Of a DNA stretch of 64,000 nucleotides, positions 8,449 through 58,709 are shown piece by piece (position 1 is the first letter of the stretch; every line of letters starts with the position of its first letter). The DNA is from Candidatus Staskawiczbacteria bacterium. Lineage in GTDB: Bacteria; Patescibacteriota; Minisyncoccia; Minisyncoccales; Staskawiczbacteraceae. The translations under genes were made by a program, and so were the position numbers. The notes under the pieces were generated by a model. The model had not been told where the DNA came from and ran no database searches. It was given only the letters and a program-made list of their open reading frames with translations. Where the stretch lies: the NCBI GenBank assembly GCA_016196125.1, contig JACPYG010000015.1, positions 22,966 to 86,965 on the forward strand, written 5' to 3'.

Positions 8449-9345
8449 TTATTTACATTTAAGGGCTATTTTCAAATTGTCTAAATTGTTCCTCATTTCT
8501 GTAAAATAACTCTTACCCTGTGATACTTCTTCATTGGTTAAGCCCTCTATTGGATTTAAAACCATTGTTTTTGCTCCCACTTCATTTGCTATGGTATCTG
8601 ATAATTTGGGGCTGACTAAGCTTTCAAAAAATATGTATTTTACGTTATTTTCTTTGGCAAAATTAACAATATTAGCTAACTGCTGAGACGATGGTTCGGC
8701 ATCGGGCGATAATCCTGCAATGGAAACTTGATTGAATCCGTAATCAGCAGCCAAATAGCCAAAAGCAGAGTGAGATGTAATAATATTTTTTTCTTCACAG
8801 TCAGCTAAACCCTGTTTATATTCCACATCTAAATTGTTTAATTCATTTTTAAAAATATCTGCATTTGTTTGATAATAACCTGTATTTTCTGGGTCAATTT
8901 GCGCAAATCCATTAGTAATTTTGTCTACTATTTCTTTGGCTAACTGCGGATTCAGCCAAATGTGAGGGTCCGTGGTATTATTTTCTTCTCCAACTGTTAA
9001 AATAATAGTATTTTTAGAATCTAAGTTTTGTTTTATATTACTCCCCCATGGCTCAAAACCTTCTCCAATTAATACAACCAATTTGCTGTTTTCTATTTGA
9101 GCAATATCTTTTGCAGTTGGCTCATAGTCGTGCGGTTCAGCGCCGGCAGGAGTAATATTTATAACATTTGCCTTATCTCCGCCGATTTGCCGGGCAAAAA
9201 AGTATAGCGGATAAAAACTCGCTGACACTTGAATTTTATCTGGCTGAACTTGATAATTATAGATATTATTTAAAATAATAACCAAAAAACCTATAAAAAT
9301 AAATCCAATAATAAAAAAAATAATAATTTTTGATTTTTTATCCAC
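8449..9345 (-). CDS. Metal ABC transporter substrate-binding protein (ZnuA/TroA family)
   Basis: N-terminal anchor, SFYPLYFFA, EPHDYEP, DPHIWL and HSAFGYLA motifs of cluster A-I binding proteins. Confidence 0.85.
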   Translation of the reverse strand: MDKKSKIIIFFIIGFIFIGFLVIILNNIYNYQVQPDKIQVSASFYPLYFFARQIGGDKANVINITPAGAEPHDYEPTAKDIAQIENSKLVVLIGEGFEPWGSNIKQNLDSKNTIILTVGEENNTTDPHIWLNPQLAKEIVDKITNGFAQIDPENTGYYQTNADIFKNELNNLDVEYKQGLADCEEKNIITSHSAFGYLAADYGFNQVSIAGLSPDAEPSSQQLANIVNFAKENNVKYIFFESLVSPKLSDTIANEVGAKTMVLNPIEGLTNEEVSQGKSYFTEMRNNLDNLKIALKCK

Positions 9346-24256: not shown

Positions 24257-25252
24257 TTACATCTCCATTAATAATATTTCTAAAGCCAGCTTTGGATTGG
24301 CATTAGTCAAAGAAATTTGCGCATTAATAATTTCCAATAATTTTAAAACTTCTTTAATTTTTGATATGGAATAATTCTTAAAATTATCTGCAGCTTCCGG
24401 AAAAAAATCTTTGGGAGTTAAATTATCCGCTCCTGTTTTTAAAAATAATAAATGCCTCAAATATCTTTGCAAAATTTCTAAAACTCTCTTTGTATTATTG
24501 CCATCCAAATTAATTTTTTTTGTGTATTGAAACTTCAGGGCAAGATTAGAATTAATAACTTTTACCAGTTCTTGCAGTGTTGTTTGCTCTTCTTTCAATT
24601 TATCCGGATTTAAAAATAATTCTATTGCTTGGCCTGGTTTACAGGAACAAAAAGATGCAAGATCATGCGCTATTTTTTCTTGCCTGCCGGCAGGCAGACT
24701 TTCTCCCATTTTTACCAAATTATATTCAATTTCTTTCGGGTCTACAAGATAAAATTTTATTCTTTGACACCTTGAAATTATCGTAGACAATAATGTTTCT
24801 GGATGCGGAGATATTAAAATTAAAATAGTTTTTCCTTTTGGCTCCTCAAGTGTTTTTAAAAGGCAACTCTGCGCCTCAAAATTCATTTTTTCAGCTCCAT
24901 TGACAATGACTGCCTTAAAAGAACCGTAATAAGATTTATAGCTTAAAAAAAGCAAAGCCTCTCTTATTTGTGAAATATCAATTTCCTGTTTATCATTTTT
25001 CAGGTTTACCATTAAAACATCAACATAGCTTTCATTTTCTATGTCTTTGCAATTTCTGCAAATTCCGCATGATTCTTGACCGGGGCTTTTGCCTGCCTCG
25101 GCAGACAAACAATTGATTAACTTTACAAATTCTTTTGCCAAAGTTCTCTTACCTATTTTCTCCTCTCCAGAAAACAAATAAGCATGAGCCAACTGGCCTG
25201 ATTCAAGCTTATTCTTTAAAAAATCCCATTGTTTTTTGTGACCGATTAACAT
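24257..25252 (-). CDS. holB: DNA polymerase III delta' subunit
   Basis: HAYLFSGEEKIGKRTLA, Cys cluster C..C..C and LLKTLEEP motifs. Confidence 0.85.
   Translation of the reverse strand: MLIGHKKQWDFLKNKLESGQLAHAYLFSGEEKIGKRTLAKEFVKLINCLSAEAGKSPGQESCGICRNCKDIENESYVDVLMVNLKNDKQEIDISQIREALLFLSYKSYYGSFKAVIVNGAEKMNFEAQSCLLKTLEEPKGKTILILISPHPETLLSTIISRCQRIKFYLVDPKEIEYNLVKMGESLPAGRQEKIAHDLASFCSCKPGQAIELFLNPDKLKEEQTTLQELVKVINSNLALKFQYTKKINLDGNNTKRVLEILQRYLRHLLFLKTGADNLTPKDFFPEAADNFKNYSISKIKEVLKLLEIINAQISLTNANPKLALEILLMEM
24681..24696. repeat. GC palindrome TGCCTGCCGGCAGGCA in frame in holB (SLPAGRQEK)
   Basis: Perfect 16-bp palindrome inside AT-rich coding sequence. Confidence 0.9.
25090..25107. repeat. 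Degenerate copy TGCCTGCCTCGGCAGACA in holB (LSAEAGKS)
   Basis: Same half-sites with a 2-nt centre insertion and one arm change. Confidence 0.5.
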
Positions 25253-31063: not shown

Positions 31064-31151
31064 AATTTTAGAATCTAGAATTTAGAAAGTAGAATCTAGA
31101 ACACGGAACGTACGCTTCTATTTTCTATTTTCTAACTTCTATTTTCTCGCT
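31064..31151. repeat. Heptad-periodic inverted repeat filling the rpsD-rpoA spacer
   Basis: (TAGAATC)x5-like arm 31068-31101, loop CACGGAACGTACG, (TTTCTAT)x5-like arm 31115-31147; about 26/32 complementary. Confidence 0.75.
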
Positions 31152-32604: not shown

Positions 32605-32695
32605 AACTTCATGAAACATACAACATGGAACATGGAACAAAACTACGACGAAACGTTTTTTTGTTATGTGTTCTATGTTATGTGTTATGTGATTT
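32605..32695. repeat. Heptad-periodic hairpin element (CATGRAA arm / GTTATGT arm), copy 1, filling the rpmJ-rpsM spacer
   Basis: The arm at 32610-32643 is 30/34 identical and the arm at 32661-32695 is 33/35 identical to the copy at 49647-49727. Confidence 0.85.
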
Positions 32696-36928: not shown

Positions 36929-37687
36929 TTATGCAACAGATTTAACAATTTTTAGAAATTTTTCTGCGTAAAGCGAAGCCCCGCCGACTAAAAGCCCGTT
37001 AGCCCCGGTATTTTTAATATAGAGAGCCGAGTTGTCTGAATCTACGCTGCCGCCATAAAGAACTTTCATATTATCGGCTATTTTTCTATTATACAATTTT
37101 AAAACAACTCTTCGTATAAATAAAATAGAACTCATCGTTTCGTCTTGTGAACAATTATTTCCGGACCCAATTGCCCAAATTGGCTCATAAGCAATAACAA
37201 TATTTTTTACTTCTTTTACGATAATGCCTTTTAAATCTTCTGTAATTTGCCTTTCTAAAACTTCAACTTTTTTGCCTGTCTTTTTTTCCTCATTAGTTTC
37301 ACCTATGCACAAAATCGGTTTTAATTTTTCGTGCAAGCATTCTTTTATTTTTTTATTGATAACGGTGTCTGTTTCGTTTAAATATTTTCTGGACTCTGAA
37401 TGGCCTATTATAACATATTTTACTTTTGAATCACGAAGCTGTGAAGCTGAAACCTCTCCGGTAAACGCGCCTTTTCCCCTTACCTGCCTGCCGGCAGGCA
37501 GGTAAAAAACATTCTGGGCGCCCAAAGTCAATCCTTCCAATAAGTTCAAATAAACAAAAGGCGGGCATATAACAACTTCAACCTTCTTTTCATTTTTTAA
37601 CCCTTTTTTTATTGCTTCAAAAAGAGCTTTGGCTTCTTTTTGATTGGCAGGATTCATTTTCCAGTTGGCAACAATAAGATTTTTCAT
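36929..37687 (-). CDS. tpiA: Triosephosphate isomerase
   Basis: ANWKMN, GAFTGEVS, IIGHSESR, AYEPIWAIGSG, GGASL. Confidence 0.95.
   Translation of the reverse strand: MKNLIVANWKMNPANQKEAKALFEAIKKGLKNEKKVEVVICPPFVYLNLLEGLTLGAQNVFYLPAGRQVRGKGAFTGEVSASQLRDSKVKYVIIGHSESRKYLNETDTVINKKIKECLHEKLKPILCIGETNEEKKTGKKVEVLERQITEDLKGIIVKEVKNIVIAYEPIWAIGSGNNCSQDETMSSILFIRRVVLKLYNRKIADNMKVLYGGSVDSDNSALYIKNTGANGLLVGGASLYAEKFLKIVKSVA
37482..37503. repeat. Perfect 22-bp palindrome ACCTGCCTGCCGGCAGGCAGGT in frame in tpiA (YLPAGRQV)
   Basis: Read directly from the sequence; the two halves are exact reverse complements. Confidence 0.95.
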
Positions 37688-42469: not shown

Positions 42470-42494
42470 AAAATTGTATTTATTTTTGGTTATA

Positions 42495-42610
42495 GCGGAA
42501 ATAAGGATATTTTTCAATTCGGGCTCGGGTCGCGAGAGCTTCCCGCTGTGCGGGAGCTCCCGACATAGGCCGTGGGTTTGGCGGGCGTTGAAAAATATCC
42601 TTATTTCCGC
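42495..42610. repeat. MITE-like hairpin element, 116-bp form with a nested 43-nt palindrome (rpsH-rplF spacer)
   Basis: 23-bp perfect arms GCGGAAATAAGGATATTTTTCAA / TTGAAAAATATCCTTATTTCCGC. Core TTCGGGCT[43 nt]GCCGTGGGTTTGGCGGGCG. Confidence 0.9.
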
Positions 42611-42619
42611 TTAATACTA

Positions 42620-43009
42620 CTACCATACTTCGCAAATTATTTCCCCTCCTAATTTTAATTTATTGGCTTTTTTACTTGTCATTAATCCTTTTGAAGTTGA
42701 AATAACCGATATTCCATGACCTCCTTTGACCCGTTTTATTTCTGAAACTTTCGCATAAATTCTTTGGCCAGGTTTGGAAACTCTTCTTAAATCTGATATT
42801 TTAGAAACTCCATTATCATATTTTAGAATAATTTTCATCGTCTTTACTTTACCTTTAACTACTGTTTTTACTTCTCCTATAAAATTTTCCTGCATCAAAA
42901 TTTTAGCAACTTCGTATTTTACTTTTGAAAAAGGAATGGATACTTCTGGCTTGACAACAGCTTTCGCATTCCTTATTTGATTTAACATGTCTGTTATTGG
43001 ATCTGTCAT
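42620..43009 (-). CDS. rpsH: 30S ribosomal protein S8
   Basis: MTDPITDMLNQIRNA. The ORF-track N-terminal 20 aa are repeat read-through. Confidence 0.95.
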   Translation of the reverse strand: MTDPITDMLNQIRNAKAVVKPEVSIPFSKVKYEVAKILMQENFIGEVKTVVKGKVKTMKIILKYDNGVSKISDLRRVSKPGQRIYAKVSEIKRVKGGHGISVISTSKGLMTSKKANKLKLGGEIICEVW

Positions 43010-43100
43010 TTGTGTGAGTATTAAGTATTGAGTATTTTGTATTAGGTATTTGACGTTTCGCATACTCAATACTTCATACTTTATGCTTAATGCTTCATAA
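43010..43100. repeat. Heptad-periodic inverted repeat filling the rpsN-rpsH spacer
   Basis: (NAGTATT)x5 arm 43014-43050, loop TGACGTTTCG, (NATACTT)x5 arm 43061-43098, with a 12-bp perfect pairing AGTATTGAGTAT/ATACTCAATACT. Confidence 0.8.
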
Positions 43101-43286
43101 TTACCAGGATGATTTTTTAACTCCTGGGATTTCTCCTTTATTGGCTAATTCTCTAAAACATATTCTGCAAAGGCCAAAAGCTCTCATGAACCCTCTTCTC
43201 CTGCCGCATTTAAAACAACGTCTAATAATTCTTGAAGAATATTTCGGTTTCTTTTTTGCTTTTGCTATTTGTGATGTCTTTGCCAT
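43101..43286 (-). CDS. rpsN: 30S ribosomal protein S14, short zinc-binding (type Z) form
   Basis: 61 aa, [23 protein letters not shown]. Confidence 0.95.
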
Positions 43287-43287
43287 G

Positions 43288-43851
43288 TTATTTATCTTCT
43301 TTAATAGGAAATCCTAATAATTTATATAATTCTAATCCTTCTTCTTTGTTTTTTGCATTTGTAACAATTGTTATTTCTAATCCAAAAATAGTTTTTTCTT
43401 TTTCGGCAAAAATTTCAGGAAAAGAAATGTGTTCGCGAAAACCGATATTTAAATTGCCTCTCTTGTCTATTGCTTTTTGTGAGACACCCTTAAAATCGCG
43501 AGACCTCGGAAAAGACAAATAAACCAATCTCTCTAGAAAATCCCACATTTTGCTTTTTCTCAATGTTACCATTGAAGCAATCTCCAATCCTTCCCTTAAC
43601 TTAAAACCGGCAATTGATTTTTTGGATTTTACTAATTTTGGCTTTTGTCCAGAAATAGAAGCTAAATCTTGCATAATAAGATTCTGTATTTTTTCCCTTT
43701 CTCCTGATGTTTTGGTTACGGCTGTCTTTCCGAAACAAGTATTTATAACCACTTTTAAAATCTTCGGAACGGCCATTGTATTTTTGTAACCAAAAATCTT
43801 TTGCATTTGCGGCACTACTTCTTTATTATATTTTTCTTTTAAACTAAACAT
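43288..43851 (-). CDS. rplE: 50S ribosomal protein L5
   Basis: Position plus ...[16 protein letters not shown]... Confidence 0.95.
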
Positions 43852-43870
43852 ATTTTATAATCTCTTTTTT

Positions 43871-43944
43871 GCGGAAATAAGGATATTTTTCAATTCGGGC
43901 TGGCCGTGGGTTTGGCGGGCGTTGAAAAATATCCTTATTTCCGC
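43871..43944. repeat. MITE-like hairpin element, minimal 74-bp form (rplX-rplE spacer)
   Basis: Same 23-bp arms as 42495-42610; core TTCGGGCTGGCCGTGGGTTTGGCGGGCG without any nested palindrome. Confidence 0.9.
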
Positions 43945-43954
43945 ATAGATAACT

Positions 43955-47146: not shown

Positions 47147-47970
47147 AACTTATTTGTCCACTTTTTTGTATTTCTTGTTTTTACCCCCAAGGCTGGTTTT
47201 CCCCATGGAGTTTTTGGATGTTTTAAACCAATTGGCTGTCTGCCCTCTCCTCCTCCATGCGGATGGTCAACTGGATTCATAGCCGAACCCCTAACATGAG
47301 GCCTTCTCCCTTTTAATCTTGATTTACCTGCCTTACCAACCCTATAATATCTGTTTTCTGGATTTGAAACCATTCCTATGGAAGCAAAGCACTCGCTTAT
47401 AAATTTTCTTACTTCGGTTGACGGCATTTTCAGGTTAACGTAATTTCCCTCCTGAGCTAAAACCTGAGCCGAAGATCCTGCAGATCTTACTAACTTTCCT
47501 CCTTTGCCAGGCTCTAATTCAATATTATAAACCATTGTTCCAACCGTTATATTTTTTAACTTTACTCTATTTCCTGGTTTTAAAGGAGCTTTCTCGGAAA
47601 ATATAATCTCATCTCCAACTTTCAGGTCTTGTGGCGCAATAATATATTGCCTATATTTGCTATGCCTGCCGGCAGGCATGCCTAAATATTCTATCAGAGC
47701 GATAAAGGCCGTTCTGTTTGGATCATATTCCAAAGCAACAACTCGGGCTGGCGAATCTATTCTTGTTTGTGAAAATTCAATCATTCTATAAAGTTTTTTT
47801 ACTCCGCCTCCTTTGTGTCTTACCGTAATCCTGCCAGAAGACTTCGATCTGCCAACATGTCTTTTTATATTTGCCAAAAGACTCTTTTCTGATTTATCTT
47901 TTGAAAGCAATGAAAAATCGATTCCTGTCATTCCTCTTCTGCCTGACGTTGTTGGTTTATAATGTTTCAT
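47122..47970 (-). CDS. rplB: 50S ribosomal protein L2
   Basis: EYDPNRTAFIAL ... GSAMNPVDHPHGGGEGR. Confidence 0.95.
   Translation of the reverse strand: MKHYKPTTSGRRGMTGIDFSLLSKDKSEKSLLANIKRHVGRSKSSGRITVRHKGGGVKKLYRMIEFSQTRIDSPARVVALEYDPNRTAFIALIEYLGMPAGRHSKYRQYIIAPQDLKVGDEIIFSEKAPLKPGNRVKLKNITVGTMVYNIELEPGKGGKLVRSAGSSAQVLAQEGNYVNLKMPSTEVRKFISECFASIGMVSNPENRYYRVGKAGKSRLKGRRPHVRGSAMNPVDHPHGGGEGRQPIGLKHPKTPWGKPALGVKTRNTKKWTNKFIIQRRKK
47662..47679. repeat. Perfect 18-bp palindrome ATGCCTGCCGGCAGGCAT in frame in rplB (GMPAGRHS)
   Basis: Read directly from the sequence. Confidence 0.95.
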
Positions 47971-49828: not shown

Positions 49829-50146
49829 TTATATTTTAATCGCAATATCAACTCCAGAAGGTAAATTCAAATCCCTTAGAGCTTCTATAATCTCTTGGTT
49901 CGGAGTTAATATATCAATCATTCTTTTATGTACCCTCATCTCAAACTGTTCTCTGGCGTTTTTATGAACAAAAGTCGATCTGTTTACGGTAAATTTTAAA
50001 ACTTCTGCAGGCAAAGGAACAGGACCTATCACTTCAACTCCATAACGATTTGCTATATCAATTATCTGCCTGGCCGAATTATCTATAATCTTATGATCAT
50101 AAGACCTAAGCTTTATCCTAAGTTTAGGTTTTACATCTTCAGACAT
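49829..50146 (-). CDS. rpsJ: 30S ribosomal protein S10
   Basis: KLRIKLRSYDHKIIDNSARQI. Start placed at MSEDVKPK (ATG 50146, preceded by GAAGGAAAG). The ORF stays open to 50266, which would add 40 aa including MPAGRQ. Confidence 0.9.
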   Translation of the reverse strand: MSEDVKPKLRIKLRSYDHKIIDNSARQIIDIANRYGVEVIGPVPLPAEVLKFTVNRSTFVHKNAREQFEMRVHKRMIDILTPNQEIIEALRDLNLPSGVDIAIKI

Positions 50147-50208
50147 ATTCTTTCCTTCTTCTAGAAGAATATTTGCTTTAATACCCGTTTCTTTAGATGG
50201 CTTTTTTA

Positions 50209-50230
50209 CTGCCTGCCTGCCGGCAGGCAT
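50209..50230. repeat. GC palindrome CTGCCTGCCTGCCGGCAGGCAT in the tuf-rpsJ leader (or the rpsJ N-extension)
   Basis: The core TGCCTGCCGGCAGGCA at 50214-50229 is a perfect palindrome. Confidence 0.9.
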
Positions 50231-50301
50231 TGCTTTCTTTCGAATTGCTGGTTTCTTGACTGGCATCTTATGATTTTATGAACGAAGTGAATAATATCAT
50301 G

Positions 50302-55391: not shown

Positions 55392-55517
55392 TATTTAATA
55401 CTAACACGTATTGACCCCGTTAGAAATAGCCAATCTTAAAAATACTTAAATAACGTTATTATGGACGTGATTTTTAACGGAGTTGAAAAAAATAAAAGAA
55501 AGTGTTAGAATGCACCA

Positions 55518-55615
55518 AAGTGGAAATAATAATATTTTTCAACGTCCGCCCTGCCTGCCGGCAGGCAGGCAAACCCACGGCCAGCCCGAATTGAAAAATA
55601 TTATTATTTCCACTT
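55518..55615. repeat. MITE-like hairpin element with the nested 20-bp palindrome (upstream of rpmB)
   Basis: 25-bp perfect arms AAGTGGAAATAATAATATTTTTCAA / TTGAAAAATATTATTATTTCCACTT. Core CGTCCGCC CCTGCCTGCCGGCAGGCAGG CAAACCCACGGCCAGCCCGAA. Confidence 0.9.
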
Positions 55616-55625
55616 GTATAATTTT

Positions 55626-55811
55626 ATGGAAAAAATTTGTTCAATTTGTAAAAAAAAATCAGGAATGTCATGGTCTCTCATAAAACTGAGGGGTAAATAT
55701 AATCCTACTCAAAAAATAAGAAAGCGCCCAAATTTACAATGGGTTCGTTTATTTTCGGGCAAAAGAGTTCTCGCCTGCGCCAAGTGCATAAAAGCAATGG
55801 CGAAAGTATAA
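55626..55811 (+). CDS. rpmB: 50S ribosomal protein L28 (Cys-containing form)
   Basis: MEKICSICKKKSGMSWSLIKLRGKYNPTQKIRKRPNLQWVRLFSGKRVLACAKCIK. ATG at 55626; the ORF track starts at an upstream TTG. Confidence 0.85.
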   Translation: MEKICSICKKKSGMSWSLIKLRGKYNPTQKIRKRPNLQWVRLFSGKRVLACAKCIKAMAKV

Positions 55812-55814
55812 ATT

Positions 55815-56195
55815 TCAAACAATGTTTTCATAGTGATTTAAACGCTTAACACTATAATCGGAATTCAAAACAATACATATGGCATCTATCCTTAAAGCGC
55901 CATTCCATTTTTTAAAAGCCGTGTAAGCCAAAGCGTTTCCTGTGAGTTTTCTCATTTTCTTTTTATTAATTGTTTCTTCCGGTGTTCCAAAATTATCTCC
56001 TACTTTTGTTCTTACTTCAACAAAAACCAAATCTATTTTTCCTGCCCTGAGCCTGCCGAAGGGTTTTTTGGCAATTAAATCTATTTCAGCATATTTTGTT
56101 TTATAATTTTGTTCTATTATTTTATAACCTTGTTTTATCAAAAATCTCTTGGCAATCTCTTCCCCTATTTTTCCGACTTCGTTATGCTGACTCAT
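55815..56195 (-). CDS. yraN: YraN family (UPF0102) endonuclease-like protein
   Basis: GEEIAKRFLIKQGYKIIEQNYKTKYAEIDLIA...LVFVEVRTK. Confidence 0.8.
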   Translation of the reverse strand: MSQHNEVGKIGEEIAKRFLIKQGYKIIEQNYKTKYAEIDLIAKKPFGRLRAGKIDLVFVEVRTKVGDNFGTPEETINKKKMRKLTGNALAYTAFKKWNGALRIDAICIVLNSDYSVKRLNHYENIV

Positions 56196-56206
56196 AGCTA
56201 TGATAA

Positions 56207-56306
56207 GGTCAGAAAATAAAAATATTTTTCAACGCCCGCCCTGCCTGCCGGCAGGCAGGCAAACCCACGACCAGCCCGAATTGAAAAATATTTTTATTTT
56301 CTGACC
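56207..56306. repeat. MITE-like hairpin element with the nested 20-bp palindrome (yraN-comM spacer)
   Basis: 26-bp perfect arms GGTCAGAAAATAAAAATATTTTTCAA / TTGAAAAATATTTTTATTTTCTGACC. Core identical to 55543-55590 except for 2 nt. Confidence 0.9.
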
Positions 56307-56311
56307 TAAAT

Positions 56312-57847
56312 TTACACAGTATCATAAATTTTAGGCTTATACTGCAATGCCTCTGCCATATGGGAAATAGTTATTTCTTCTGCCCCATCCAAATCGGCGA
56401 TTGTTCTGGCAACTTTTATTGTTTTCATATAAGACCTGGCTGAAAGCTGGAATTTTAAACTTGCTGTTCGCAAAATCCCTTCTATATCTTTTGTCAGTTT
56501 GCAGTATTTCTTAATGTGGCTATTTTTCATTTGGGCGTTTGACTGAATTGAATCTTTTATAAAACGCTCCTCCTGTTTTTCTTTGGCTAAAACAACTCTT
56601 TGTTTGATTATTTTTGATGACTCTAATAGTTCGGAATTTTTCTGATTATCTGAAAACTCTGCCGTATCAACCGGCAAAATGGCGATATGCAAATCAATTC
56701 TGTCTAAGATAGGGCCAGAAATTCTTTTTTGATATTTTTTAATCTGGTTTTGCGTGCAAACACAATTTTTCTTGGGATGATTTAAATAACCGCAAGGACA
56801 AGGGTTTGCCGAAGCCACCAACATAAAATCGGCCGGATATATTACTCTTTGTTTACTTCTTGAAATAGTTAAATATCCATCTTCCAAAGGCTGCCTCATT
56901 GCTTCCATAACATTGTGGGGAAATTCATTAAACTCATCCAGAAAAAGAACACCTCTGTGGGCTAAACTTATTTCGCCAGGATGCGGTTTTGCTCCGCCTC
57001 CGACAAGACCAACTAACGAGGCCGAATGATGAGGCGCCCTGAATTGCCTCTCCGTTATCAGCGAACCGCCTGGCGGGATGCTTCCTGCCACTGAATATAT
57101 TTTAGTTACTTCCAACGACTCTGTTTCATTTAATGGAGGCAATATGCCTGGCAGAGCCCGGGCCAACATAGTTTTTCCCGAACCGGGAGAACCCACCATA
57201 ATAATATTGTGGCCTCCGGCTGCCGCAATTTCCATTGCTCTCTTTGCCTGTTCCTGTCCTAAAACTTCTCTCATGTCAAATTCGGCTGACGAGGGCAGGC
57301 CGCTTAAAATTTTCTGATAAACAACCGGTTCAATATTTCTTTTTTTTAAAAAATATCCTGCTATCTGGATCAAATTTTCAACAGGAAAAACTTTTACCCC
57401 TTTTACTACTCCGGCTTCATTGGCTGAATCCTTGGGAACAAAAAGGTTTGAAAATCCAAATTCTTTGGCAAAAAGAGCCATTAAAAGAGCTCCTTTTGTA
57501 TGCCGAAGAGAACCGTCAAACGATAACTCCCCTAAAAATAATGATTTTTCTGGTATGGGAAACTGCAATACACTGCTCAAAATTCCAACAGCAATGGGTA
57601 AATCATAAAGAGAACCTTCTTTTTGAATATCGGCCGGAGCTAAATTGACTGTGATTTTTTTTGCCGGAAAATCAACTCCCGAACTTGAAATTGCCGCCCT
57701 GACCCTTTCTTTGCTTTCGTCAACCGCCTTGTCTGGCAATCCAACAATTTCAAAACCGGGCAATCCTCTGTTTGCCAAATTTACTTCCACATCCACCTTT
57801 ATTGTTTCAAGGCCCAAATTTACAACAGAAGGCACTTTAATTAACAT
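56312..57847 (-). CDS. comM: Mg-chelatase-like AAA+ protein ComM/YifB
   Basis: GSPGSGKTMLA, VLFLDEFNEF, 511 aa. Confidence 0.9.
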   Translation of the reverse strand: MLIKVPSVVNLGLETIKVDVEVNLANRGLPGFEIVGLPDKAVDESKERVRAAISSSGVDFPAKKITVNLAPADIQKEGSLYDLPIAVGILSSVLQFPIPEKSLFLGELSFDGSLRHTKGALLMALFAKEFGFSNLFVPKDSANEAGVVKGVKVFPVENLIQIAGYFLKKRNIEPVVYQKILSGLPSSAEFDMREVLGQEQAKRAMEIAAAGGHNIIMVGSPGSGKTMLARALPGILPPLNETESLEVTKIYSVAGSIPPGGSLITERQFRAPHHSASLVGLVGGGAKPHPGEISLAHRGVLFLDEFNEFPHNVMEAMRQPLEDGYLTISRSKQRVIYPADFMLVASANPCPCGYLNHPKKNCVCTQNQIKKYQKRISGPILDRIDLHIAILPVDTAEFSDNQKNSELLESSKIIKQRVVLAKEKQEERFIKDSIQSNAQMKNSHIKKYCKLTKDIEGILRTASLKFQLSARSYMKTIKVARTIADLDGAEEITISHMAEALQYKPKIYDTV

Positions 57848-58709
57848 AATATTTGCCTGATTCTTGGTTAATAAATCCTTTTAACTGCATTAAAGAAAGA
57901 GTCGTGCCGACTTTGGCGGCAGATATGCCAAGCGTTCTGGATAATAAATCTGCCTCCATCGGTTCTCTTTTTAATTGCTCAATTATTGTTTTTTCCTCTT
58001 TGCTAAGAATCGAACTTTGCTTTGCTTGACTTTCGGAATTAGATAAATTAGCTGGAGAAACATTATAGTACTTTAAAATATCACTTGCTTCTGTTACAAC
58101 AAAAGCCCCCTCTTTTATTAGTTTTATCGTTCCTTTTGAAACATCGCTGGTAATTTGGCCTGGCACGGCAAATATTTTTCTGCCATATTTTTTGGCATAT
58201 TTTGCCGTTATCAGTGTGCCGCTATTTAAACCGGCTTCTACAACTAAAATTGCTTTTGATAAGCCGGCTACTATTCTATTTCTTCTTGCATATGTCCAGT
58301 TAACTGGTGAAAATTTTCCTTCAAGCTCTGAAATAATCAAGCCTTTATTTTCTAAAATTTCGTAATAAAGTTTTTCCTGATATTCCGGGTGTATCATATC
58401 TATCCCGCATGGCATTACGGCAATAGTTTTACCGCCAATCCTTACTGTTGCGCTATGGGCGGCTTCATCTCCGCCATACATAAATCCAGAAACAATAGTT
58501 ATGCCAGAGGCCGCTATTTCGGTTACAAGTTGTTCTGTTATTTTTTTTCCGTAACCAGTCAAATGCCTTGAACCCACCACTGCCAGGCAATTTTCAAAAA
58601 TTTCTTCTTTCCATTCTCCTTTGTAATATAATTTTTTTGGCGCCTCCCTGCCAATTTCTTTTAATGATTTTGGATATTTTTTATCTTCTATTTTAACGGC
58701 CTTCTCCAT
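57837..58709 (-). CDS. dprA: DNA processing protein DprA
   Basis: AVVGSRHLTGYGK ... GIDMIHPEY ... winged-helix tail. Confidence 0.9.
   Translation of the reverse strand: MEKAVKIEDKKYPKSLKEIGREAPKKLYYKGEWKEEIFENCLAVVGSRHLTGYGKKITEQLVTEIAASGITIVSGFMYGGDEAAHSATVRIGGKTIAVMPCGIDMIHPEYQEKLYYEILENKGLIISELEGKFSPVNWTYARRNRIVAGLSKAILVVEAGLNSGTLITAKYAKKYGRKIFAVPGQITSDVSKGTIKLIKEGAFVVTEASDILKYYNVSPANLSNSESQAKQSSILSKEEKTIIEQLKREPMEADLLSRTLGISAAKVGTTLSLMQLKGFINQESGKYYVN

Follow-up and report, generated by a model that had tools for sequence, protein, structure and literature searches.

The 127-bp ERIC (IRU) repeats of enterobacteria are imperfect palindromes that occupy transcribed intergenic regions in either orientation and fold in the mRNA, and their long variants arise by insertions at fixed internal sites. 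The Correia repeats (CREE, NEMIS) of Neisseria form RNA stems that are RNase III substrates. The attC sites of integrons keep their structure while their sequence changes, and recognition is of the folded single strand. The genomes of Patescibacteria, the candidate phyla radiation (CPR), are small and are usually thought to be poor in mobile DNA. REPINs are REP doublets that form hairpins and are mobilised by RAYT Y1 transposases; compensatory changes are documented in them and they are thought to be mobilised as single-stranded DNA (Bertels and Rainey, 2011, PMC3116915). This report concerns a family of hairpin repeats in a stretch of 64,000 nt from a Candidatus Staskawiczbacteria bacterium (contig JACPYG010000015.1, positions 22,966 to 86,965), which as a whole is called the window below. 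Two of its copies sit in spacers of the ribosomal protein operon. The family is a previously undescribed set of small non-coding palindromic repeats from one Patescibacteria group, and what is new about it, set against the known small interspersed palindromic repeats, is that its conservation is centred on the apex. We consider it likely that the hairpins are a lineage-specific REPIN/ERIC/Correia-like non-coding interspersed repeat of Staskawiczbacteria-type Patescibacteria, probably propagated as a folded structure.

In the hairpin unit, of ~74-80 bp, two AT-rich arms of 23-27 bp (consensus GCGGAAATAAGGATATTTTTCAA) enclose an asymmetric GC-rich centre of 28 nt, CGCCCGCCAAACCCACGGCCAGCCCGAA, which is ~75% G+C in a genome of 34% G+C. 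The family resembles REPINs in that both are extragenic, non-coding hairpins of ~70-100 bp with tens of copies, compensatory hairpin changes and no classical target-site duplication, and in both the folded single strand is likely to be the unit of selection. However, a REPIN conserves its two terminal REP 16-mers around a variable spacer, whereas the present hairpins conserve the apex and vary at the ends. There is also no GTAG-type REP motif here, no RAYT among the 50 open reading frames (ORFs) scanned, and the stems are AT-rich and not GC-rich. ERIC repeats share the palindromic form, the transcribed intergenic location in either orientation and the long forms produced by fixed-site inserts. 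They are unrelated in sequence, belong to another phylum and are conserved over their full length without such arm covariation. Correia repeats also have inverted arms of ~26 bp, a short and a long form distinguished by an internal segment, and frequent co-transcription within operons, but their termini are conserved and they come with a TA duplication, an IHF site and outward promoters; in the hairpin family no target-site duplication was seen and the test for outward promoters was negative. The attC sites carry R and L boxes at the stem base, extrahelical bases and cassette arrays next to an integrase gene, in contrast to the perfect stems, conserved apex and dispersed copies of the present family.

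Four copies are found in the window.

43870-43945, minus strand: short ("bare") hairpin copy, 76 bp, rplX/rplE spacer; arms 43870-43893 and 43922-43945
42494-42611, minus strand: long hairpin copy, 118 bp, rpsH/rplF spacer; arms 42494-42517 and 42588-42611
55518-55615, plus strand: third hairpin copy, 25-bp perfect arms; ends 11 nt before the rpmB start (ATG at 55627)
56206-56307, plus strand: fourth hairpin copy, 27-bp perfect arms; between a comM-like gene (56312-57847) and a yraN-like gene (55815-56195), both on the minus strand

The first two lie in the minus-strand gene order secY, rplO, rpsE, rplR, rplF / rpsH, rpsN, rplE / rplX, rplN, where the slashes mark the hairpins. An earlier reading of the same DNA, made from the sequence only, had described this pair as hairpins with identical 23-bp arms and a common core. 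That description is confirmed, and each arm is 1 bp longer than it had stated. The 23-nt arm has exactly four matches in the window, at 42495, 42588 (minus), 43871 and 43922 (minus), all without mismatch, and none is expected by chance (100 dinucleotide-preserving shuffles). One extra complementary base per palindrome gives perfect 24-bp arms in 42494-42611 and 43870-43945. The centre of the short copy covers the 28 nt from 43894 to 43921; its sequence on the minus strand, which is the mRNA strand, is CGCCCGCCAAACCCACGGCCAGCCCGAA. Both copies have the core segment GCCGTGGGTTTGGCGGGCG without any difference. Their sole difference is 42 additional nt that split the centre of the long copy, to which the earlier description of 43 nt in place of a G (42526-42568) is equivalent. 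It was also fair in stating that neither copy holds an ORF, since the only frames that overlap the long copy are mechanical TTG-start ORFs of 51-53 aa, none of them credible. The whole elements fold as RNA at -38 to -66 kcal/mol (z -7 to -10). The short copy folds at -38.1 kcal/mol (z -10.2) and scores 106.9 bits with a covariance model of the family (R1), and the insert of the long copy folds into its own GC hairpin within the big hairpin. In a separate Logan assembly of the same organism (L090, SRR12113416) the contig breaks exactly inside both elements. The gene-side junctions are thereby confirmed, and neither element is an artefact of the window's assembly.

The third and fourth copies, which the sequence-only reading did not list, have the opposite orientation to the ribosomal-operon pair. 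The arms of the third copy differ from those of the short and long copies by compensated changes, and in the fourth copy the G-rich strand of the centre is in mRNA sense. The covariance model, run over the window, returned these four copies and nothing else convincing. Public collections were scanned with a 19-nt exact word common to all four. In a collection of species-representative genomes it found 16 true copies, in metagenome-assembled genomes (MAGs) of Patescibacteria, and six chance matches in unrelated bacteria; in metagenome contigs it found 67 loci, mostly from groundwater. Loci from other assemblies are designated here by L numbers. After de-duplication ~65 distinct copies remain beyond the window from the two scans. 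The genome-wide search suggested earlier, as run on these collections, thus bears out the proposal of a multi-copy, non-coding, interspersed hairpin family. The exact 28-nt centre was present in 45 of 59 matches in a first regular-expression pass, and rare variant copies carry inserts of +20, +26, +40 or +42 nt. Copies typically lie ~5-30 nt from the upstream stop and from the downstream start. At one locus (L069, 4960-5121) a highly diverged family member and one near consensus are joined head-to-head. Several of the MAGs (CAYHHX01, CAYIVF01 and CAYXRV01; L002-L022) were deposited as "uncultured Candidatus Saccharibacteria", a label that looks wrong, as their ribosomal proteins are 93% identical to those of the window. 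Because the RplE of these "Saccharibacteria" is 93% identical to the window's, the family looks confined to Staskawiczbacteria-like organisms. Searches of the literature on MITEs (miniature inverted-repeat transposable elements), REP or palindromic repeats in Patescibacteria and Parcubacteria, and on PAGRQ, found nothing relevant, and a large prokaryotic MITE survey makes no mention of these phyla. In the whole window only tRNAs pass the gathering thresholds of Rfam 15. At E<=10, the two hairpin regions matched nothing but miRNA precursor models, generically as long hairpins and with scores far under the threshold, and a known RNA family was rejected on this hairpin noise.

The way in which the copies diverge is the main evidence on what is conserved. 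An alignment of 57 bare copies (A1) has three zones: an almost invariant inner stem, ATATTTTTCAA / TTGAAAAATAT, whose invariance is partly due to ascertainment; a highly conserved centre; and variable outer arms. Of the 20 centre positions not covered by the 19-mer query, most are conserved at 90% or more. Conservation is lowest at the outer ends of the arms, where pairing fades out (columns 3-4). Within the arms, 108 cells carry two-sided changes, compared with 30 +/- 5 in shuffled data, where none of 500 shuffles reached the observed value, and with 11-41 in slid controls. Seven pairs of orthologous copies, identified by their flanks, show the same process. Four of the five arm differences between L088 and the third copy of the window are compensated, as are both differences between L025 and L055, and L059 and L073 differ by one compensated transversion. 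Copies that do not contain the query word and were found by the model (L003 3840, L069 4960 and L085 2789) have wholly different arms that are still paired, and their centres retain CCCAC(G/A)GCCA(A/G)CCCGAA. Conservation thus attaches to a specific apex, whatever the stem, and this is the reverse of a transposon defined by its ends.

What appears to be maintained is the centre, especially CCCACGGCCAGCCCGAA, and the ability of the arms to pair, and not the sequence or termini of the arms; this points to a folded hairpin as the probable unit of propagation. What is recognised would probably be this folded hairpin, as single-stranded DNA or as an extruded cruciform, through an apex of specific sequence. 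REPIN/RAYT and other systems that recognise hairpins suggest, by analogy, that the enzyme acting on it would be encoded in trans, at another place in the genome. Correction of quasipalindromes by template switching is a known mutational route to symmetric arms, and such switching, or selection, could keep the arms symmetric. Mismatches in the stems comprise 30 A.C, 16 G.T and 19 transversions; in the copies whose C-rich loop is in mRNA sense, wobble mismatches number 10 and A.C mismatches 16. No preference for RNA-type G.U tolerance was found among these mismatches, either overall or relative to the transcribed strand, and the pattern mildly favours pairing that is maintained in DNA.

Comparison with relatives whose RplE is 88-93% identical to the window's shows that the occupied spacers are unusually long here, as had been supposed (103 and 149 nt, against 3-37 and 26-32 nt in relatives).

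rplX/rplE spacer: window 103 nt; L091 37 nt; L093 4 nt; L095 3 nt; L097 10 nt
rpsH/rplF spacer: window 149 nt; L091 30 nt; L093 26 nt; L095 genes overlap; L097 32 nt
rplC/rplD spacer: hairpin in L098 and L099; window 12 nt, empty
rplO/secY spacer: hairpin in L098; window 8 nt, empty
rplR/rpsE spacer: hairpin in L097; window 27 nt, empty

The spacer-length check suggested in the earlier reading therefore gave a positive answer: both window sites are short or empty there and other spacers of the operon are filled, from which insertion and deletion on a short evolutionary time-scale follow. Hairpin copies are gained and lost in short spacers, including many of the S10-spc operon, on the time-scale that separates close relatives. 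In the closest relative (L091, RplE 93% identical; same region as L099) the rplX/rplE spacer at 2464-2500 still has a 12-nt right-arm end, GATATTTCCGCC, and this remnant is a decayed copy, lost by imprecise deletion. The rpsN/rpsH spacer of L091 is 132 nt long. Two regulatory explanations of the ribosomal-operon pair are ruled out by these data. A conserved, structured operon leader at the two sites does not agree with the empty spacers of relatives and the other genomic copies, and an autoregulatory site for S8 or another ribosomal protein at rplE does not agree with the presence of the same element at unrelated loci and its absence from relatives.

Several observations weigh against a propagated, selfish repeat. 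No insertion or excision intermediate was observed. A Pfam search of 40 ORFs of the window and of 10 ORFs that flank paired copies in L055, L059 and L069 found no transposase, HUH or recombinase domain. No solo arms flank a coding element; those that occur apart from whole hairpins are fragments at contig ends and, in L026, one truncated copy. The third copy and its counterpart in L088, and likewise the rpsH/rplF copies of the window and L042, have stayed orthologous with an intact centre in genomes that are ~68-83% identical in DNA; host function explains such retention no less well than selfish persistence does. The diversity of the family is under-sampled by the exact 19-nt word. There is also an orientation bias. 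In co-directional spacers the C-rich strand of the centre is in mRNA sense in 32 copies and the G-rich strand in 15 by crude gene calls, or ~34 against 14 after correction of two miscalls in the window. This bias of ~2:1 is not predicted by a purely DNA-level selfish model unless it is relative to the direction of replication. Gene and replication direction are confounded here, with nearly all window genes on one strand and a uniformly negative GC skew.

The orientation bias and the orthologous copies lead to the main rival, which is that the element is a domesticated cis-acting RNA hairpin, such as an RNase III site, an exonuclease barrier or a protective 5' stem-loop, with a protein-bound C-rich apical loop and with dispersal as a secondary matter. 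This account is compatible with the favoured one; as the primary explanation we regard it as rather unlikely. Its stem of 23-27 bp matches the length of double-stranded RNA that RNase III needs, all copies lie in transcribed spacers near an upstream stop and a downstream start, and orthologous copies keep their pairing by compensated changes. The rpmB leader is its best case. A TG-extended sigma70-like site at 55483-55511 (TTGAAA-17-TAGAAT) ends 6 nt before the base of the third copy, and a counterpart (TTGCAA-17-TAGTAT) lies before the rpmB hairpin of L088 at about 8545-8575, with a gap of 6-7 nt across the two. As this predicted promoter ends so close to the hairpin, the hairpin would be the 5' end of the rpmB transcript. 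The arrangement of promoter, hairpin and rpmB is common to the window and L088 despite ~70-80% DNA identity of the flanks. However, both orientations occur in co-directional operons, so that the loop is G-rich in about one third of transcripts, and the closest relatives have no copies at the same spacers and carry them elsewhere. The mismatches show no G.U preference on the transcribed strand, and the neighbouring genes (ribosomal, ABC transporter, efp, comM) have no common theme. A propagated repeat would also have consequences in RNA. Since the copies sit inside operons, each in a transcribed spacer, they are co-transcribed and would form RNase III-sized double-stranded stems in the mRNA. 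Any effects on mRNA processing or stability would then be likely side-effects, and some old copies, for example that of the rpmB leader, may have been co-opted.

A classical MITE, that is, a deletion derivative of an insertion sequence (IS) with a DDE transposase, moved by cut-and-paste through its terminal inverted repeats, is very unlikely. The family does share with MITEs a small size (74-118 bp), the absence of coding capacity, multiple copies, inverted repeats and insertion polymorphism, and in this loose sense the "MITE-like" label of the sequence-only reading stands. The strict sense fails on two counts. MITEs make target-site duplications of fixed length, 2-10 bp (PMC11602168). Here, when the proposed check for such duplications was run, flanking direct repeats were no commoner than in shuffled flank pairs, and comparisons of filled with empty sites also showed none. 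The arms are inverted, but the termini are the most variable part, with the outermost positions least conserved, and divergent members share the centre but no arm sequence. Neither the window nor ~0.6 Mb of related loci yielded an IS or a longer element with matching ends, and the 50 ORFs scanned with Pfam are housekeeping genes only, with no Y1_Tnp domain. The 19-nt word had no match in viral contigs, which speaks against a MITE, and a phage origin was rejected on the same result. Two further candidates were tried and rejected. An outward promoter that uses TTGAAA of the arm as its -35 is not supported, as -10-like hexamers are not enriched at 16-18 nt relative to other offsets, and the promoter scan found no promoter using the hairpin arms. 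An intrinsic terminator would need features that the elements do not have: there is no T-run and no scanner match at the elements, the stems are AT-rich and the flanks are heterogeneous.

More doubtful still is that the GC-rich centre is a DNA or RNA signal used by the cell, for instance a patch on which Rho loads, a signal in DNA uptake or recombination, or a cruciform site bound by a nucleoid or replication protein. The centre is indeed the most conserved part, its ~75% G+C stands out from the genome, its C-rich strand is favoured in mRNA sense, and the competence genes dprA and comM are in the window. But this evidence is circumstantial and nothing ties the motif to any protein; with ~1 copy per 16 kb the family is far below the density of known uptake sequences, and 28 nt is short for a rut site. 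That the elements are an artefact of metagenome assembly or chimerism is barely conceivable: repeats are frequent sites of misassembly and L090 ends inside both elements, but the copies come from dozens of independent assemblies in several projects, with site-specific flanks and individually diverged arms, and L090 confirms the gene-side junctions.

The sequence-only reading had seen the long and short copies as a filled and an empty site for a second, nested palindrome. The feature in question is as follows.

42526-42567, minus strand: 42-nt internal module of the long copy, an imperfect, bulged GC hairpin that includes a 12-nt perfect palindrome, CGGGAGCTCCCG, at 42551-42562

The segment is an insertion relative to the majority 28-nt centre, and folding agrees that it is a GC hairpin, but it is imperfect and bulged and not a perfect palindrome. 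It also recurs as a fixed-position module, at the same core position in L006/L045 (with two substitutions) and in L042 (with the tip replaced), and it was not found outside the hairpin family in the 64-kb window and the related loci fetched for that search. The long-form copy of L042 is orthologous to that of the window, in the same rpsH/rplF spacer; the L042 genome is the more distant one (RplE 79% identical), yet nearer relatives have no rpsH/rplF copy. The module looks like an accessory hairpin at a fixed core position that defines a subfamily, and an independently mobile element is unproven.

The idea of nesting does hold for a different sequence, a 20-nt palindrome in the two copies that were not listed earlier. 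Related GC palindromes stand alone in protein genes of the window.

55550-55569: nested perfect GC palindrome CCTGCCTGCCGGCAGGCAGG in the third copy, at a core position that differs from that of the 42-nt module
56240-56259: nested 20-nt GC palindrome CCTGCCTGCCGGCAGGCAGG in the fourth copy, at the same core position as in the third
37480-37505: free-standing GC palindrome in the triose-phosphate isomerase gene (tpiA); extra LPAGRQV
47662-47679: free-standing GC palindrome ATGCCTGCCGGCAGGCAT in rplB; encodes MPAGRH
24681-24696: free-standing GC palindrome in a DNA polymerase III delta'-like gene; ..SLPAGRQE..
50214-50229: free-standing GC palindrome in ORF 49829-50266; ..AMPAGRQAV..
about 665-704: GC palindrome in-frame in ftsZ

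The hairpin of L088 that is orthologous to the third copy has a bare centre without CCTGCCTGCCGGCAGGCAGG, and the two form a genuine filled/empty pair for the nested palindrome. The free-standing palindromes are 16-26 bp long, lie in-frame and are read as PAGRQ-type peptides. The 7-aa insertion in tpiA is missing from the L098 and L099 orthologues, and RplB of the window has a 7-aa insertion at the palindrome relative to RplB of L099. At the same position RplB of L098 (3053-3901) has a different 6-residue insertion relative to L099, given as SIISGQV, possibly the decayed trace of an older insertion at this hotspot. ORF 49829-50266 is probably rpsJ, from its position next to rplC. The core GCCTGCCGGCAGGC has seven sites in the window (<=1 mismatch), and in 614 kb of related loci there is no exact site and one variant, so that the GC-palindrome family looks like a lineage-specific burst. 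The CCTGCCTGCCGGCAGGCAGG palindrome is a member of a second dispersed family, distinct from the hairpins, whose copies are also inserted in-frame in protein genes. It resembles the Rickettsia palindromic elements and the GC clusters of yeast mitochondria, which are likewise short palindromes of AT-rich, reduced genomes that occur in-frame in essential genes and in other repeats. It differs from them in its length (18-26 bp, against ~100-150 bp for the Rickettsia elements and 30-60 bp for GC clusters), in being a perfect palindrome and in being known so far from one lineage.

A combined account of the two families is tentative, and we think it unlikely to hold in full. In it the hairpins would be more than selfish repeats, and an apex of ~20 nt, C-rich and set on a co-varying stem of 23-27 bp, would be a structure-plus-sequence signal that Staskawiczbacteria use and that is kept at orthologous positions across genera, as in the rpmB leader. 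An 18-26-bp GC palindrome would in addition colonise apices and essential genes (rplB, tpiA, ftsZ, the polymerase III delta'-like gene and probably rpsJ), which would make it the bacterial equivalent of the GC clusters of mitochondria. The apex could be recognised by a factor for RNA processing, a Rho-like factor or one that binds single-stranded DNA.

Other repeats were seen in the window. Three more AT-rich hairpins lie at 43017-43080 (rpsN/rpsH), 31075-31142 (rpsD/rpoA) and 32614-32687 (upstream of rpsM). Their arms are unrelated, of low complexity and heptamer-like, they have a common central ACGTT(T/C)CG, and they fold at -19 to -25 kcal/mol (z -3 to -5). These are also insertions, because the rpsN/rpsH spacers of L093 and L097 are only 9-10 nt long. 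Additionally, a motif, CCCCGTTAGAAA / TTCTAACGGGG, recurs at 2065-2145, 55417-55430 and 15419-15434/15492-15507, and in L088 at about 8535-8550. Downstream of ftsZ it is present as an inverted pair of 25 bp, both the window and L088 have it close to the rpmB promoter region, and it also occurs on the flanks of a tRNA; a role as a binding site for a protein or as a signal resembling a terminator is conceivable. Two genes of competence type, the comM-like gene (56312-57847) and dprA (57837-58709), adjoin the fourth copy, and no link to the repeat is established.

These repeats matter in practice, as they break short-read assemblies, as in L090, and they offer strain-level markers for CPR populations. 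The GC palindrome, which adds 6-7 residues to essential proteins, is a tractable case of the spread and tolerance of short palindromes in coding sequence. In a streamlined genome, the hairpin family is an active-looking repeat with repeated entries into, and losses from, spacers of the operon that is the most conserved in bacteria. Its fixed apex and free, paired arms point to recognition of a folded structure, not of transposon ends, and may open the way to an enzyme specific for hairpins, or an RNA-binding factor, that is new and comes from an uncultivated lineage.

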